This document shows positions 54,233 through 62,293 of a stretch of DNA of 64,000 nucleotides, piece by piece. The DNA is from an uncultured Acidobacteriaceae bacterium (GTDB taxonomy: Bacteria; Acidobacteriota; Terriglobia; Terriglobales; Acidobacteriaceae): contig CAVQHM010000029.1 in the NCBI GenBank assembly GCA_963712295.1, positions 63,704-127,703 on the forward strand, in the 5' to 3' direction. Positions within the stretch are counted from its first letter, which is position 1; every line of letters starts with the position of its first letter. Both the position numbers and the translations under genes were made by a program. The notes under the pieces were generated by a model. The model was not told the DNA's origin, ran no database searches, and was given only the letters and a program-made list of their open reading frames with translations.

Positions 54233-57107
54233 TTACGAGCAGCCCAACTCTTTCATCTTGGCGAGGATTTTTTCCCGCAGCACCTTCAACTCTTCCGCCC
54301 GCGCCGTCAGCCCCTCCACGACCTTCACCGGCGCCTTCGCCAGAAACTGTTCGTTCGAAAGCTGCCGCTGCCCGTTGGCGATCTCCTTCTCGATCTTCTC
54401 CAACTCCTTCTTCAGTCGCTCACATTCCGCCGCAACGTCGATCTTCTTTTCGTATAGCGCATGCACATCAAACCGCGAAGTACTGCGAGCCCCCGGCAGG
54501 TTTGCCAGCGACCTTTCCACGAATGTGACCTTCTCCACACTCCCCAGCCGCTCGATCGCCGCCAGATTCCTCTCGAGCATCGCGCGAATCTCCGGATTCA
54601 TGCGCAAACACCTCGATCGGCACTTTGATCTTAGGCTCGACTTTCAATTCCGCCCGCAGATTGCGCACCGCAACGATCAGGTCCTGCAGGATCGCCATCT
54701 CCGTTTCAGCGCCCAGGTCAATCTGCGTTTCATCCGCGGCCGGATAGGCCGCCAGCGCAATCGACTTCAGCGGAGGCGTGCCATCGTACATCGCCTGCCA
54801 GATTTCTTCCGTGATAAACGGCATCACCGGATGCAGCAGCCGCAAAGAAGCCTCAAACAAATTGACGAGATTCGCACATGCGACTCGCGCCGCGATCGTG
54901 TGGGGACGGGGCTCTGCCCCGTCCAGGGCGGGCCGGAGAACCGCCTCCACACTTTCCTCATTCAGCCGTGGCTTGATCAGTTCCAGGTACCAGTCGCAAA
55001 ACTCGCCCCAGAAAAAATCGTAGATGCGAGTCGCGGCCTCATCGAAGCGATAAGTCTCCAGCGACTCGTTCACGTCGCGAGTCGCGCGATTGAACCGCGA
55101 GAGAATCCACCGGTCCTCAAGCGAACCAACCTCAAACCCGGCAACGCCCACGTAGGGGCGGACGCATTCGTCCGCCCCGGGCCGCAGGCCCGCGTCGATC
55201 CGGTCCACATTCATGAACATCAACCGAGCCGCATTCCATATCTTATTGGCAAAATTCCGATACCCCGCCGTGCGGCTCTCGCTAAACGCGATATCGGTCC
55301 CCGGCGCCGCCATCGCCGCCAGGGTAAAGCGCGTCGCATCGGTTCCGTACTTCCCGATGACTTCAATCGGATCGAGCACGTTCCCCTTCGTCTTCGACAT
55401 TTTCTGCCGGTCCGCATCGCGCACCAGCGCGTGGATATAAACTTCGCGAAAGGGAACGCTCGCGCGCAGCGCATCTTCTTCCGACCCCAAACTTGCCTCA
55501 GAACGCTGGCCCGGCCTGTGCGGCGGCATCATGAACCAGCATCCCAGCATGATCATGCGCGCCACCCAGAAAAACAGAATGTCAAAGCCGGTGATCATCA
55601 GCGAATTGGGATAGAAAACTTCCTCGTCGCGAGTCGCCGCAGGCCAGCCCAAAGTAGTGAACGGCAGCAACCCCGAAGAAAACCAAGTGTCAAGCACGTC
55701 CGCATCCTGCTCCAGGTTCTTGCTGCCGCATTTGCAAGCCGCAGGAGCCTCGCGCGCCACGATCACTTCCCCGCAAGCGCCGCAATACCAAGCCGGGATC
55801 CGGTGTCCCCACCACAACTGCCGCGAGATGCACCAGTCGTGGATGTTCCGCATCCAGTTCAAATAAATCTGCCCGTAATTTTCCGGCGTGAACCGTATGT
55901 ATCCCTTCTCGACAACCTCAATCGCCCGCTTCGCCAGCGGCGCAATCTTGACGAACCACTGCGTCGAGAGCCGCGGCTCGACAATCGTGCCCGAGCGGTC
56001 GCACTTGCCCAAAGCAATCGTGTAATCCTTGGTGCCCACGAGGTACCCTTGCTCCGCCAGGTCTTCCACCACATGCGCGCGCGCCGCAAAGCGATCCAGC
56101 CCCGCGTAACGGCCGGCATTCGCATTCATCTTCGAGTGCTCGTCAATCACTTCGATCTGCGGCAGGTTGTGTCGCAGTCCGGCCAGGAAGTCGTTGGGAT
56201 CATGCGCCGGCGTGACCTTCACCGCGCCCGTGCCAAACTCCGGCTGGGCCAGTTCGTCGGCGATGATCGGAATCTCCCGATTCATCAGCGGCAGCATCAC
56301 ATGCTTACCCAGCAGATGCGTGTAGCGTTCGTCTTTAGGATTGACCGCGACCGCCGTGTCGCCCAACATCGTCTCCGGACGCGTAGTCGCCACGGTAATA
56401 AATTGCGTAGGGACAGCCGCCCCCGGCTGTCCAGCGGCGCGAGGCGCCGCAGCCTCTGTGTCCACCACCGGATACCGGATCTCATACAGCTTGCCCGCGA
56501 TGTCCTCGTGCTTCACTTCGAGGTCCGAGATCGCCGTGCCGCAGTCGGAACACCAGTTCACGATGTACTTCCCGCGATAGATCAGCCCCTCTTCATACAG
56601 CCGCACGAACACTTCCTTCACCGCGTGTGACAGCCTGTCGTCCATGGTGAAGTATTCCCGGCTCCAATCGACCGAAGCGCCCAGCCGTTTCATCTGATCG
56701 AGAATCGCGCTGCCGTACTCGCGCCGCCATTCCCAGACGCGCTCCAGAAACTTCTCGCGCCCCATCTCGCGCCGCTTCTTGCCTTCTTTCAAAAGCTGGC
56801 GCTCCACCAGCATCTGCGTCGCGATGCCGGCGTGGTCGGTCCCCGGCAGCCAGAGCGAGACGAAGCCGCGCATGCGCTGCCAGCGCACCATGACGTCCAT
56901 CTGCGTCTGTTCCATCATGTGCCCCATGTGCAGCCGCCCGGTCACATTGGGAGGAGGCAACAACAGCGTGAACACAGGACGCACATCTTTTTCGGACGAA
57001 CTGGGCGGAGGCGTCTCCACCTGAAACAGTTTTTCCCGGACCCAATACTCGGCCCAGCGCGCTTCAATCGCGCCCGGTTCGTAAGCTTTCGGCAATTCGT
57101 GCGGCAT
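54233..57107 (-). CDS. valS: Valine--tRNA ligase; frame broken by one extra base near 54600..54607
   Basis: HIGH region PPPNVTGRLHMGH and KMSKS region KMSKTKGN. ORF 54233..54607 encodes the C-terminal coiled coil (ERLKKELEKIEKEIANGQRQLSNEQFLAKAP) in the adjacent frame. Confidence 0.9.
54897..54934. repeat. Family E unit inside the valS frame
   Basis: CGTGTGGGGACGGGGCTCTGCCCCGTCCAGGGCGGGCC, translated as RPALDGAEPRPHTI. Confidence 0.8.
55151..55183. repeat. Family E unit inside the valS frame
   Basis: CGTAGGGGCGGACGCATTCGTCCGCCCCGGGCC, translated as PGADECVRPYV. Confidence 0.8.
56406..56453. repeat. Family E bipartite unit inside the valS frame
   Basis: CGTAGGGACAGCCGCCCCCGGCTGTCCAGCGGCGCGAGGCGCCGCAGC, translated as AAAPRAAGQPGAAVPT just before the conserved ITVATTRPETMLGD. 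Confidence 0.85.
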
Positions 57108-57120
57108 CTTGTGTGGCTCA

Positions 57121-57166
57121 CGTGGGGACGGACGCATTCGTCCGTCCCAGCCAGGCATAGCCTGGC
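57121..57166. repeat. Family E unit just upstream of the valS start
   Basis: CGTGGGGACGGACGCATTCGTCCGTCCCAGCCAGGCATAGCCTGGC. Confidence 0.8.
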
Positions 57167-58246
57167 AGATTTTCCCGGCACCATGAGGGAATCTTTGATC
57201 TTACAGTCGCAAGAAAAGAAGGGTCAAACGCGCGAGGGGGTAATACGCACTGAGGGGATTTTACTACCCCCCCCACTGACCTTGCACCCTGAAGGGCCGG
57301 GGGGCGCGCGACGGGGGTGGGTGGTTGCGCTGGCTAGGTGGGCGGGGTAAAGCGCTCGTCTGAAGCTGCCAAGAGTCTGCGCCCGCCTGAAGAGGCGGCC
57401 GCCGTCGAGTTCGTATTCAAGTACGGTCTGGCGCTGACAGCAATGGGCTTACTAGATTCTGTGAAAAGAACGCCCGAGTGGGCCGACAATGAGGCTGCCT
57501 GCCGAGAACATATCCGGCAGAGCGCGGCTGGGGTCGCACGTGTGATTGTCCCCTTGTGCCTTTCGTTGCCAAAGACGCTGCCGAAGCTTGCCCACACCTG
57601 AGTCGTAGTGACCCAACCCACCCAACCTTTTTCATGGGAAGCCCGGGGACGGGGAAGCCACAACCAGCCGAGATCGAAATCCATTGACTTAAGAACCGTC
57701 GTGCGCAACGATAGAGATCGGATTGGGGCAGTTTCGAGGTGTATCTGTCGACCTAGACGGCCCTCGAAGCTGCCCCGAACCAATTTTCGGGGCTCTTTGA
57801 TAATGCAAGTCGTTGGTTCTTAAAGACTTTACCCGCAAGTCCTTTAAACCCAAAGATCTGGCGGGAGCCACCTCCCAAGTCTTTGATTCCCAAAGACCGA
57901 GCGATGGGGGGAGGGGGTACCCTTCTAACTAAGTCAGCTATGTCAAACCGGTGAATAGCCAAGAAAACTCGGACAGTCGCAGCGAAGCCAAAAATAATGA
58001 AGGCTTAGTTAAATCGATTCACACGCCGCAAATGATCGTCGTCGAAGCAAATCGGGAAATTCGCCGATGCACTTCCCTCAAGAAAGGTTGCAAATAACCG
58101 ATACCAGCGGTAGTATGACTTTGGATGCTGTTTTTCGCGTCCACCCTTATCCGAACAAACACAACTTCCAGGTAGAAACGCAACCCTAGGTTTTAGACCA
58201 AATCTAAAGGGGCGCCCAAGGCCCCGGTGCAATTCGGAGAGAATGC

Positions 58247-58993
58247 ATGTCGTGGTACGCGTACTGCCTCACCGAACACCAGACCCTAGCAAATGGTGTT
58301 CGCGCCCGTCGTCCCTTCGTTCTCGATGGAATCCAAGGTGTGAACTCCGCTCCTGTCATGAGCTACCCGAGCGGAGAATTCGCGGTGATCGTCAGTGAAT
58401 ACGACCGCACCACCTCCAAACTCGACGAAAAGTCGGTTCTGGAACATGCCCGCGTGGTCAGCCAGAGCTTCCGAACCGCCACCGTCTTGCCCTTCCGCTT
58501 CGGAACGATCTTCGACACCGAAGATGCCATCCGCCAGGCGGTGCGAGCCAACCGCCGGACGTTCTGCGAGAGCGTGGAGCGGCTGCGCGGCAAGTCCGAA
58601 ATGCGCATCAAGCTGGTGGTTCGCGACGGTTCTCCCCGCGGTTCCATGGACGAGATCGTCCTGCCCGATACCGTCGGCCGCGAGTACCTGATCAAGCTGC
58701 GCGAGAAGGCGTCCCGGGAGCGTGAGCGCCAGACCAAAGCCCGCGCCCTCTCCGTCCAGGTGCACAAGCTCTTCAACCCCCTCGAGGAAGAAGTCAGCTG
58801 CAAGAAGGTGGATGCCGACGGAATGTTGCTCGATATCGCACACCTGATCGACACCAAGTCGATCGAAAAGTATCAGAACCGCTACAGCACGGCCGCCAAG
58901 CAACTCAAGAACTGCCAGCTGTTCGTGACCGGTCCCTGGCCGCCCTACCACTTCCTGCCCGGCAAGGTACGCACCGTTGCCGGCGACAGCTAG
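58247..58993 (+). CDS. GvpL/GvpF family (gas vesicle accessory-like) protein, orphan
   Basis: GGAGAG ends 6 nt before the ATG. Has the family hallmarks SWYAYCL at the N-terminus, TVLPFRFGTIF in the middle, and FVTGPWPPYHF near the C-terminus. Confidence 0.8.
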   Translation: MSWYAYCLTEHQTLANGVRARRPFVLDGIQGVNSAPVMSYPSGEFAVIVSEYDRTTSKLDEKSVLEHARVVSQSFRTATVLPFRFGTIFDTEDAIRQAVRANRRTFCESVERLRGKSEMRIKLVVRDGSPRGSMDEIVLPDTVGREYLIKLREKASRERERQTKARALSVQVHKLFNPLEEEVSCKKVDADGMLLDIAHLIDTKSIEKYQNRYSTAAKQLKNCQLFVTGPWPPYHFLPGKVRTVAGDS

Positions 58994-59012
58994 AAACGAT
59001 TGATTGGTCCCA

Positions 59013-59039
59013 AGCCCCCTTTCGAGGGGGCTTTTTTTT
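59013..59039 (+). terminator. Rho-independent terminator after the gvpL/F-like gene
   Basis: AGCCCCC-TTTCGA-GGGGGCT followed by TTTTTTT. Confidence 0.85.
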
Positions 59040-59048
59040 GAGGGGTGT

Positions 59049-59114
59049 TGCGTAGAGGCGCGGTTTGCCGCGTCTCCGGCGGCGGAGGAGACGGCGCAAG
59101 CCCCGTCTCTACAG
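59049..59114. repeat. Family E subfamily (GTAGAG...CTCTAC double hairpin)
   Basis: GTAGAGGCGCGGTTTGCCGCGTCTC + GGAGACGGCGCAAGCCCCGTCTCTAC. The reverse complement matches 62300..62366. Confidence 0.8.
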
Positions 59115-59401
59115 CAAAGTGCAGTTTTGTGCATCTGGCCACCCTTCATCCGACATTGGCGGGCCCGCGTTGCGCGTTGGGGAATTACCCTAAAATATTG
59201 ATTTTGAACAGTTTCCGGAATGGCAATTGCCTTCAGCCCGATTCCGCATTTTGGTTCTGCAAATGCTCAGCTCCAGTGCACTAAAGAGGTCGTGCTCGTT
59301 TGACAAACTTCACTCTCGATGCTCTCGACATCTCACTCTGTCCGTTCCATTTCCCGGAGCGGCGTCCCTTAGCTGTCCTCTGATTCCCGCCACTTAACCT
59401 C

Positions 59402-59428
59402 TTTGAAAAGGGTGGCCCCGAAAGGGGC
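59402..59428 (+). terminator. Rho-independent terminator with GAAA tetraloop, no annotated gene upstream
   Basis: GGTGGCCCC-GAAA-GGGGCCGC followed by TTTTTTT. Confidence 0.7.
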
Positions 59429-59478
59429 CGCTTTTTTTGTTTCTCGCGCTCCTGTACACTCGCGGTTTCTTATGAACT

Positions 59479-60500
59479 TTGAAAGAACGCATGATCCAGG
59501 CCGAAACCCGCGCCGACGACGGCATGCAATTGATGCGCGTCGAAACCTTCCAGTTCTCCGACCCTGACGAAATTTCCGTCCGATGCGGAAGTAGAAGCCA
59601 TCGTGCGGAAGATGGCCAGCGATTTGAGCGCGTTACGGACGGCTCCACTCGCCGAGCCTTATAGCGGCCCCGCATTGCTCTCCGGCCGCGCGGCCGCCGT
59701 TTTTTTTCATGAAGTGCTCGGCCATCGCGTCGAAGGACAGAGGCAGCGCGGCCGCGACGAAGGCCAGACTTTCACCAAGAAGGTCAACGAAAAAATCCTG
59801 CCCGAATTCCTCAGCGTCACCGACGACCCCACGCTGCACACGCTCGCGGGCACGGAACTGTCGGGCTTTTATCGCTACGACGACGACGGCATTCCCGCCT
59901 CGCGCGTCGAGGTGGTCAAGGACGGCATCCTGAAAAATTTTCTTATGGGACGATTGCCGGTAAAGAACTTCGGCAACTCCAACGGCCACGGCCGCGCCCA
60001 GCAGGGACTGATGCCTGTCGGCCGCCAGGGCAATCTGATCGTGACTTCTTCAAAAACCGTTCCCGACGCTCAGCTGCGCTCCCGCTTCATCGAGGAAATC
60101 AAGAAGCAGGGAAAGCCCTACGGGCTCTACTTCGAAGACATTCAGGGCGGATTCACTCTGACCACGCGTGAACTGCCGCAAGCCTTCCAGGTGTTGCCGG
60201 TCATGGTGTGGCGGGTTTATGCGGATGGGCGTCCCGACGAACTGGTCCGCGGAGTCGATATCGTTGGCACCCCGCTTACCGTGCTTACCCAGATCGAGGC
60301 CACCGGAGACACCACCAGCGTCTTCAACGGCATCTGCGGAGCCGAATCGGGCAGCGTTCCTGTATCCGCAGCCGCACCGGCCATGCTGTTTTCCGACATG
60401 GAAGTGCAGAAGAAAAAGTACGGCGACGAGCGTCCTCCGATTCTTCCGCCGCCACCCGGTGCGACGGACGAGAAAAGGAGGTGCACAGTGATGCGCCGCG
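59479..60500 (+). pseudogene. TldD-type metallopeptidase, 5'-truncated fragment with a one-base frame break near 59569; no stop before the next module
   Basis: The catalytic region FFHEVLGHRVEG and the downstream SNGHGR and GICGAESGSVPVSAAAP are retained. The upstream frame (IQAETRADDGMQLMRVETFQFSDPD) begins right after a TGA at 59473, and the N-terminal domain of about 230 aa is absent. The end coordinate is approximate. Confidence 0.7.
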
Positions 60501-60547
60501 TTATGTTGGGTTCGATGTCTGGGATATTCTTTAGAACCTTTATGAAT

Positions 60548-60577
60548 TGTCATCCTGAGCGAAGCGAAGGACCTGCT
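60548..60577. repeat. Family B half copy inside the long ORF 59603..62293
   Basis: TGTCATCCTGAGCGAAGCGAAGGACCTGCT, with no right arm nearby. Confidence 0.8.
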
Positions 60578-60622
60578 GTTTGTCGGCGGTCGGCGAAAAC
60601 TGCGAATTCCTCAACGCGAGCG

Positions 60623-62293
60623 ATGTCCGCCGCCCTCGCCTTCGCGGCAGCCCTTTTCGCGCTGCTCGTCTTTGCGCCCATTCCGGCTGCCGCTTCCGCC
60701 AGTTCCGCTTCCGGCGATCCCGTCCTCCGCGCCCTTCGCGAGGAAATGGACCGCTCCAAAGCCAAGCTGAAAATGGACGGCGTACCGGCGCCGTATTACA
60801 TCGAATACCGCGTTACCGAGATCGACCAGTACGATGCCAGCGCCGTCTTCGGAGCACTGCGCAACCAGCAGCATAATCACGGCCGCCTGTTGCGCGTCGT
60901 GGTCCGCGTCGGCGACTACAAGCAGGACAGCTTCTACGGCATGGGAGAAGGCGCCGTCGACCTCGTTCCCTCCGACGACGATGTCTTCGCCATCCGCCAC
61001 CGCATCTGGCTCGCCACCGATCGCGCCTACAAGGCGGCCAGCGAAGCGCTTTCCGCCAAGCAAGCCGCCCTGAAGCAGTTGAAGGTCGATGAGCCCGTTG
61101 ACGATTTCGCCAAAGCCTCGCCGGTCGAATCGATCGAGCCTCTCGCCCATTTTCCCGCGGCCGAACTAACTTCGGACTTTCCTTCCTGGTTGCATCTTCT
61201 CGAAGAGGCTTCCGGCCAATATCGCACCGACAAAGACCTGGAGAACTTCGACTCCTCGTTGCGGTTCACCGTCGAAAACCGTTACTTCCTGAACTCCGAG
61301 GGCACGGTCGCCCGCTCCGGTCATACGCACTACGTCGTCTCCATCGCGGGATCGACCCAGGCGTCGGACGGCATGTTGCTGCAGCGGTCGCACGCCGACC
61401 AGGGCAACGATCTCAAGGATCTCCCCACCCGCGAACAATTTCTCAAAACCACTGCCCGCATCCTCGAAACCCTGAAGACACTGCGTGACGCGCCGGTGGT
61501 CGACGAGGAATACCGCGGCCCGGTGCTGTTCTCGAACGACGCCGCCGCTACTGTAGTCACCGAACTCGTGGAGCCGAATGTTCTCGGCCGAAAGCCCCAG
61601 CTCGGCGAGAACGCCCGCACCACGGGGAAATGGTCCAGCAGCTACAAATCGCGCGTGCTGCCCGACTTCATCAACTTGTTCGACGACCCGACAATCTCCG
61701 CCATTTCCGGCCAGCCCTTGTTCGGCAACTACACTCTCGACGACGAAGGCGTGAAAGCCCAGCGCGTCTCCCTGATCGAGAAAGGGCAACTCGTCTCCTA
61801 CCTCATCGGACGCCAGCCGATTCGCGATTTCCCCGCGTCGAACGGACACGGCCGGGCCGCTGCCGCCGCAGCGCCCGCGCCTCACCCCGGCAATCTCGTT
61901 CTGCAGTCGACCGATCCCCAACCGGACGCCGGCCTCAAGGCAAAGTTGATCGAGCTCTGCAAGAACCGCGACCTGCCCTACGGACTCTACGTCGAAACCA
62001 TGGGACCGCGACTCGAGCCCCGGCTCCTCTATCGCATCTACACCAAAGACGCGCGTGAAGAACTAGTGCGCGGCGGCGTCTTCGGAGATCTCGACGTCCG
62101 CTCGCTGCGCAGCGATCTGATCGCCGCCGGAACCGCGCCCGCCATCGAAGACCGCTCTGAGCCCGTCTGGTTCAGCGTCGCCAGCCCGGCGCTGCTGTGC
62201 GACGAGCTCCAGGTCAAGCGGTCGCAAGCCGCCAAGCAGAAGCTTCCCGAGTACCCCGCGCCCGCGCTCAGCCAGGCCGCGAACCGGCCGTGA
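60623..62293 (+). CDS. TldD/PmbA-family protein, secreted, lacking the HExxxH motif (PmbA/TldE-like partner)
   Basis: Signal peptide MSAALAFAAALFALLVFAPIPAAASA. Collinear with the upstream fragment (NGHGRA, YGLYVE) but has VTELVEPNVLG where the paralogue has FFHEVLGHRVEG. Confidence 0.75.
   Translation: MSAALAFAAALFALLVFAPIPAAASASSASGDPVLRALREEMDRSKAKLKMDGVPAPYYIEYRVTEIDQYDASAVFGALRNQQHNHGRLLRVVVRVGDYKQDSFYGMGEGAVDLVPSDDDVFAIRHRIWLATDRAYKAASEALSAKQAALKQLKVDEPVDDFAKASPVESIEPLAHFPAAELTSDFPSWLHLLEEASGQYRTDKDLENFDSSLRFTVENRYFLNSEGTVARSGHTHYVVSIAGSTQASDGMLLQRSHADQGNDLKDLPTREQFLKTTARILETLKTLRDAPVVDEEYRGPVLFSNDAAATVVTELVEPNVLGRKPQLGENARTTGKWSSSYKSRVLPDFINLFDDPTISAISGQPLFGNYTLDDEGVKAQRVSLIEKGQLVSYLIGRQPIRDFPASNGHGRAAAAAAPAPHPGNLVLQSTDPQPDAGLKAKLIELCKNRDLPYGLYVETMGPRLEPRLLYRIYTKDAREELVRGGVFGDLDVRSLRSDLIAAGTAPAIEDRSEPVWFSVASPALLCDELQVKRSQAAKQKLPEYPAPALSQAANRP

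Follow-up and report, generated by a model that had tools for sequence, protein, structure and literature searches.

A solitary GvpL/GvpF-family gene outside any gas-vesicle system in an uncultured Acidobacteriaceae bacterium

The locus and its expression signals

The window, a stretch of 64,000 nucleotides from the genome of an uncultured Acidobacteriaceae bacterium, carries at positions 58247..58993 of its plus strand a solitary gene of the GvpL/GvpF family encoding a protein of 248 aa. The three family hallmarks reported in the original prediction (WYAYCL, LPFRFGT and GPWPPYHF) are all found in this open reading frame, and the gene is described below on the basis of the Pfam family PF06386, an AlphaFold2 model, Foldseek comparisons, dN/dS ratios and clade support. 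Genes of relatives were called by GC3 minus GC2 scoring; under this scoring a 287-aa antisense ORF was set aside for the GvpF-like frame. The gene is flanked by valS (54468-57158, minus strand) and by a 5'-truncated ORF (59603-62293, plus strand), as initially described, the latter being of the TldD/PmbA peptidase type according to its match with PF19289 in two stretches.

Both neighbours depart from their usual form. The TldD/PmbA-type ORF lacks about 230 N-terminal residues and the signal peptide of its 612-aa orthologue in a genome of the same genus (L022), and it continues into a second PmbA-like module. The valS frame ends in compositional nonsense and the usual C-terminal coiled coil is found in the adjacent frame (ORF 54233-54607), which corresponds to a frameshift or an assembly error near position 54600. 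From valS to the promoter of the GvpF-like gene, a segment of about 0.9 kb (57159-58030) is ORF-poor and not conserved, only two relatives (L095 and L096) matching part of it. It looks like a rearrangement joint, since relatives have aroDE at the valS side.

The gene had been placed in a lower-GC segment. This holds for the non-coding DNA on both sides, with a GC content of 0.49-0.55, but not for the gene itself (0.57-0.67), which has the GC content of the flanking genes. Composition thus gives no sign of transfer. When the relatives' loci were compared, no protein-coding neighbour conserved across genera and no operon partner could be found. aroDE lies upstream of the GvpF-like gene in 12 loci, an OmpA-family protein is encoded downstream in one genus, and in one relative, with a protein of 93% identity, the gene is accompanied by rsgA and a dksA-like gene; aroDE upstream and dksA-like genes downstream recur only in the nearer genera. 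The solitary copies were never located within gvp clusters, their neighbours being valS, aroDE, rsgA, dksA-like and peptidase genes. As no neighbour is conserved across genera, the context offers no functional hint.

The upstream regions of 28 relatives were aligned, the proteins being 74-98% identical for the promoter comparison. A sigma-70-type promoter (TTGCAA, 17-nt spacer, TAGTAT) was read at 58088..58116 on the plus strand; the site comes from the alignment alone, a consensus promoter scan not having listed it. The GTTGC and T.A..AT letters of this promoter are invariant among relatives, most of which exhibit TAATAT as the -10 hexamer in place of the TAGTAT found here. About 18 nt 5' of the -35 hexamer, a GATGC motif (58066..58070, plus strand), invariant in the 28 aligned regions, may act as a UP element or as an activator site. 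The inferred transcription start yields a 5' UTR of about 120 nt (58124..58246, plus strand). It contains, beside the Shine-Dalgarno sequence, a conserved hairpin (58209-58225) whose stem is kept with different letters in the more distant rows of the alignment (L118, L121, L137 and L152). The Shine-Dalgarno sequence GGAGAG (58236-58241) is invariant in the 28 relatives, and so is the region TCGGAGAG around it in the 28 upstream regions. At the 3' side, an intrinsic terminator (59012..59040, plus strand) is made of a 9-pair stem (59012-59033) followed by a T run. The Shine-Dalgarno sequence and strong terminator first described for this gene are therefore its own, and in all likelihood it is a monocistronic, housekeeping-type core gene.

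Further downstream on the same strand, alignment and a covariance model (R1) delimit at 59247..59439 a structured non-coding element of about 190 nt, a candidate sRNA. The element comprises a sigma-54-type GG-N10-GC motif (59253-59266, plus strand; invariant as TTTGG-N6-AA.TGC), a long-range helix pairing AAGAGGC with GCCUCUU, CCUCU motifs and, according to the alignment, its own intrinsic terminator (59414-59438, plus strand). Its hairpin shows compensatory changes at all seven pairs, and its indels are not multiples of three. Over the whole structure 92.9% of the cells are paired, against at most 68% in slid controls, and 18 of the 27 pairs change on both sides, these counts being taken from a model-fitted alignment, which leans towards the model. 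A permissive Rfam scan of positions 56900-59800 returned terminator-like noise only and assigned the element to no known family. The covariance model detects a single copy in the source genome, where rpoN is also present. To judge from its sequence, the element is a candidate RpoN-dependent sRNA, or else a candidate leader or attenuator for the peptidase gene. Among relatives, the gene that follows it encodes an M28 peptidase in 46 loci, a TldD-like protein in 15, a DksA-like protein in 7 and other products in 14; it is thus often a secreted M28 or a TldD-type peptidase.

Family membership, predicted fold and absence of gas-vesicle genes

A profile search with PF06386 (GvpL_GvpF) matched the 248-aa protein with 161.8 bits and an E-value of 3.9e-47, far above the gathering score of 23.6 bits, residues 3-237 being aligned on profile positions 2-244 of 245. 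The assignment to this family made in the original prediction is therefore highly significant. Two NCBIfam equivalog models gave weak matches below their cut-offs: the better one was the GvpL model NF045778 (53 bits for a cut-off of 200), and the cyanobacterial GvpF model NF052351 reached 34.8 bits for a cut-off of 350, on the N-terminal domain only. Cluster-borne acidobacterial GvpF/L score 35-109 bits on the NCBIfam GvpL model, also below 200. Since these genuine cluster-borne proteins miss the cut-offs too, the equivalog models are narrow. The 248-aa protein belongs to PF06386 and is no equivalog of GvpF or GvpL.

Using phmmer, the sequences of the solved GvpF structures were matched at marginal E-values of 0.0017 and 0.028, and the structure of the protein was consequently predicted. 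The AlphaFold2 model, calculated with an alignment of 31 orthologues as input, had a pLDDT of 85.5 and a pTM of 0.77. When it was compared with the PDB using Foldseek, the GvpF structures 4QSG and 6L5D came on top over the full length, with TM-scores of 0.69-0.73 and E-values of 4.2e-12 to 2e-10. They were the sole strong matches, no PDB entry other than GvpF having an E-value below 1e-3. Given the end-to-end PF06386 match, the model and the Foldseek matches to 4QSG and 6L5D, family membership and the predicted GvpF fold are secure. The product is almost certainly a soluble cytoplasmic protein with the two-domain GvpF fold, in which the family-wide core motifs have been kept.

Fifteen residues are common to the clade of solitary proteins described in the next section and to 31 cluster-borne GvpF/L: Y4, Y6, G31, S50, H67, V70, P82, G115, E118, L200, G229, P230, W231, P233 and F236. 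The GPWPPY.F motif is retained at the C-terminus of the solitary clade. This clade also has invariant residues of its own (A5, F75, N102, F176, P178, C185, D196, H199, Y209 and H235). Within this set C185, D196, H199, Y209 and H235, which are invariant or nearly so, are polar, ligand-type residues of the C-terminal domain, and canonical GvpF/L have E, N, F, F and N at these positions. C185 and Y209 are lost in the most divergent solitary members (L078, L076 and L070). The clade-specific Cys, Asp, His and Tyr residues hint at a putative ligand site in the C-terminal domain.

The source assembly (4.29 Mb in 29 contigs, 92.9% complete) contains exactly one PF06386 match and no match to PF00741 (GvpA/J/M). 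Another genome of the genus (G257), which is 100% complete, likewise gave no PF00741 match. As a positive control, the PF00741 search was repeated over 301 genomes of the class and was positive for GvpA/J/M in 26, usually with three clustered genes in each, which shows that the search works. We also built a class-specific GvpA/J/M HMM from 23 cluster proteins and ran it with no filters (--max) on all six-frame ORFs of the source genome, where the best E-value was 29. For comparison, a real gvp cluster of the same family (genome G217, locus L082) comprises an ArsA/Get3-type ATPase, three GvpF/L, a GvpA (115 bits for a cut-off of 100), a GvpJ-like protein and GvpG. The predicted proteins of 12 cluster loci were searched against the source genome by tblastn, and the results were inspected for L082, L083, L085, L086 and L087; for these five loci, apart from the solitary gene, the cluster genes retrieved nothing but similarity between generic ATPases. 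None of the GvpL partners GvpG, H, I, J, K and M is encoded in the source genome. The original prediction had noted the lack of other gvp genes in the window. This absence extends to the whole assembly, and the genome-wide scan for gvpA revealed no gvp cluster of which the gene could be a dispersed member. Shell proteins and cluster context having both been searched for and neither found, the GvpF-like gene lies outside any gas-vesicle system.

A tblastn search with GvpA gave a match on contig C8 (E 0.035), which was rejected as due to chance: it falls in a compositional, antisense-looking frame where no HMM match is found. On the same contig, two adjacent genes for ArsA/Get3-like ATPases of 338 and 339 aa (pair at 243707-245729, within C8:243707-246447, minus strand) have small ORFs (91 and 120 aa) ahead of them on the same strand. 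The pair shows 23-25% identity with the tandem ArsA-type ATPase found in gvp clusters of acidobacteria and is unlinked to the GvpF-like gene.

Distribution, phylogeny and constraint of the solitary gene

PF06386 was matched in all 51 genomes sampled from the family and gvpA in only 4 of them; gvpA is thus lacking in about 47 of the 51 (close to 90%), many of which are closed genomes. The four gvp-positive genomes each possess three clustered GvpF/L and one extra copy on another contig. When each genus of the family was represented by a single genome, a profile of the solitary type detected an orthologue in 59 of the 61, nearly always at an E-value of 1e-89 or better. Across 301 genomes sampled from the whole phylum, this family was the only one with matches of this profile at E <= 1e-30. 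Among 1.84 billion representative proteins, only 59 clusters were retrieved at E 1e-30, which indicates that the subfamily is compact. The nearest relatives are labelled at the NCBI as Acidobacteriaceae, Terriglobales or 'Candidatus Sulfotelmatobacter' MAGs and come from peat, bog and soil. The isolates Granulicella arctica and Edaphobacter flagellatus carry orthologues of about 50% identity.

For the phylogeny, 61 solitary proteins were combined with 32 cluster-borne ones in a maximum-likelihood tree. Three Terriglobia families (f1, f8 and f9) have their solitary copies united in one clade, supported by an SH-aLRT value of 99 and separated by a stem of 1.77 changes per site; cluster-borne GvpF/L make up three other clades, all outside this one. 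The solitary clade also takes in the extra copies found in the four gvp-positive genomes, and within it genomes group by genus label. The phylogeny proposed with the original prediction hence places the solitary copies apart from cluster-borne GvpF/L.

Two solitary copies of a further family (f5), L080 (G178:C9:514726-515412) and L081 (G184:C77:40232-40918), are located among the cluster-borne GvpF/L. Their position in a cluster-borne clade indicates that orphaning of GvpF/L happened more than once, independently.

Pairwise dN/dS ratios against 16 orthologues ranged from 0.02 to 0.12, with dS values up to saturation. The value of 0.65 obtained for L107 was left out, as it came from an unaligned position-by-position comparison with the genes out of register. 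In one closed genome of the family (G181:C1:2670673-2671393), the match to the solitary gene is split between two reading frames, one part covering profile positions 1-128 and the other 150-245. This copy may carry a frameshift in the variable linker and may be a pseudogene in that species.

We thus consider with high confidence that the GvpF-like gene is a near-universal, single-copy and strongly constrained core gene of the family. The proteins very probably constitute a distinct, vertically inherited GvpL/GvpF subfamily that has left the gas-vesicle system, and there is little doubt that at least two more families of the Terriglobia possess this subfamily as well.

Possible functions and alternative explanations

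Gas vesicles cannot be built without GvpF and GvpL, which are, to our knowledge, known only from gas-vesicle systems. The solitary gene is kept in almost every genus of the family, here in a genome that has no gas-vesicle genes, and must therefore do another job. A function unrelated to gas vesicles, one of two possibilities raised by the original prediction, is accordingly supported by a near-universal and constrained gene that forms its own clade in a family where about 90% of the genomes have no gvpA; it is further backed by genomes that do have a complete gvp cluster, since the solitary gene coexists with it there. The other possibility was that a cluster had been lost or transferred and this gene was what remained of it; we reject it in view of the dN/dS range, the separate clade and the occurrence in 59 of 61 genera.

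The closest systems of known structure are the GvpF proteins of Microcystis aeruginosa (4QSG) and Anabaena sp. PCC 7120 (6L5D), which belong to the same Pfam family, PF06386, and have the same two-domain alpha+beta fold. They share with the solitary protein the Y.Y strand, H67, the LP.RFG core, G115/E118 and GPWPPY.F, but are only 18-19% identical to it. Unlike these cyanobacterial genes, the solitary gene lies outside a gvp cluster in a genome without GvpA, and its residues C185, D196, H199, Y209 and H235 are clade-specific. Terriglobia cluster-borne GvpF/L (for instance in G217, locus L082) come from the same class and partly from the same family and genomes, and belong to the same Pfam family. 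They are nevertheless only 21-27% identical to the solitary protein, fall in three other clades across the stem of 1.77 changes per site, and are always inside gvp clusters, where the solitary copy never is. The GvpL of Halobacterium salinarum, a proposed scaffold, is of the same family (PMC7688916); the solitary protein differs from it in reaching only 53 bits on the GvpL model (cut-off 200) and in the absence of the GvpL partners from the genome.

The known roles of these relatives suggest what the solitary protein might do. GvpF binds the N-terminal helix alpha-1 of GvpA, GvpL binds all accessory Gvp proteins, and both are regarded as scaffold proteins of an early assembly complex (PMC7688916). 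For GvpF, a transient action on the hydrophobic part of the shell protein, similar to that of a chaperone, has also been proposed (PMC11445434). By analogy, the solitary GvpF-like protein would bind other proteins by holding an amphipathic or hydrophobic helix, and its client would be something other than GvpA. The residues C185, D196, H199, Y209 and H235 would then adapt the C-terminal domain to this client or add a ligand site. We put forward this mechanism, a binding, chaperone or scaffold protein comparable to GvpF/GvpL with a client other than GvpA, tentatively, as it is extrapolated from relatives that are only 18-26% identical. Taken as a whole, a gas-vesicle-independent core subfamily with a binding or chaperone role for a non-GvpA client is the best explanation and, on balance, a somewhat probable one. 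A bolder reading gives the GvpF/L fold a core job in the Acidobacteriaceae unrelated to gas vesicles, such as chaperoning or nucleating another protein assembly or acting with the linked sigma-54-type sRNA, and is a rather doubtful proposal at this stage.

The main rival is ligand or metal sensing, an RNA-linked role being a minor one. The protein could be a small-ligand or metal-sensing regulator in which two ferredoxin-like domains of the ACT type have been re-used, the five clade-specific residues forming a putative site. The sequence pattern is consistent with this, as C185, D196, H199, Y209 and H235 are (nearly) invariant and replace E, N, F, F and N, and the Foldseek matches ranking after GvpF are sensor domains of ACT-like ferredoxin fold, namely that of NikR (metal-binding), ACT domains and PII (probability 0.4-0.8). 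These matches are however weak (E of 5e-3 or higher, TM-score on target length 0.28-0.48) and typical of any beta-alpha-beta-beta-alpha-beta domain. Moreover, C185 and Y209 are not kept in L078, L076 and L070, and the protein has no DNA-binding or output domain, so that a sensor seems unlikely. The gene might instead encode a partner of the adjacent sRNA-like element, for instance a protein that binds RNA or acts as its chaperone. The element is found 3' of the GvpF-like gene on the same strand in 83 of the 90 loci searched in relatives, mostly 150-250 nt past the stop codon, and 29 of the 35 genus representatives having both keep it within 4.2 kb downstream, while the gene beyond the element varies. 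Against such a partnership, the gene is present in 59 of 61 genera and the element in 37 of 61 according to the covariance model, both are unlinked in G115, G319 and G335, and when RNAduplex was used in 18 genomes, with shuffled controls, to pair the element with the translation start region of the gene, no consistent signal emerged (z-scores between -3.7 and +1.9). We know of no GvpF/L protein that binds RNA. The linkage may be functional or may reflect ancestral synteny; because the aroDE and dksA neighbours are also partly conserved, plain ancestral synteny would explain it, and a role as RNA partner appears quite improbable.

Two further explanations would bring the gene back to gas vesicles. 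It could be a dispersed member of a complete gvp cluster located in the 7% of the genome that is unassembled, which is conceivable for an assembly in 29 contigs and in a family where four genomes do have gvp clusters. Yet PF00741 is missing from the same-genus genome, which is 100% complete, and from about 47 of the 51 family genomes, and real clusters bring their own three GvpF/L with the solitary copy elsewhere in the genome and in another clade; we regard a hidden cluster as very improbable. The idea that a gvp cluster was lost and left this gene as a decaying remnant, or that the gene arrived recently on a transferred fragment, would fit the lower-GC non-coding flanks and the rearrangement implied by a left neighbour that is valS here and aroDE in relatives. 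But the frame is intact, the promoter, Shine-Dalgarno sequence and terminator are conserved, the GC content is that of the flanking genes, and the gene is found in nearly every genus in a tree grouped by genus label. The dN/dS values together with the conserved expression signals exclude a decaying remnant, and we give hardly any credence to this explanation as a whole.

No paper on solitary GvpF/L in Acidobacteria or in this clade was found in a literature search. Automatic annotation as 'gas vesicle protein' is misleading in thousands of entries from acidobacteria. A core subfamily that operates without a shell protein in a major family of soil and peat bacteria provides a clean system for the role of the fold itself, and orthologues are available in the cultivable species Granulicella arctica and Edaphobacter flagellatus. 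The linked sRNA-like element with its sigma-54-type motif is a second, separate lead. Should the GvpF/L fold chaperone or nucleate another protein assembly, or act together with this element, GvpF/L would be a general-purpose module recruited by gas vesicles and not a gas-vesicle invention.
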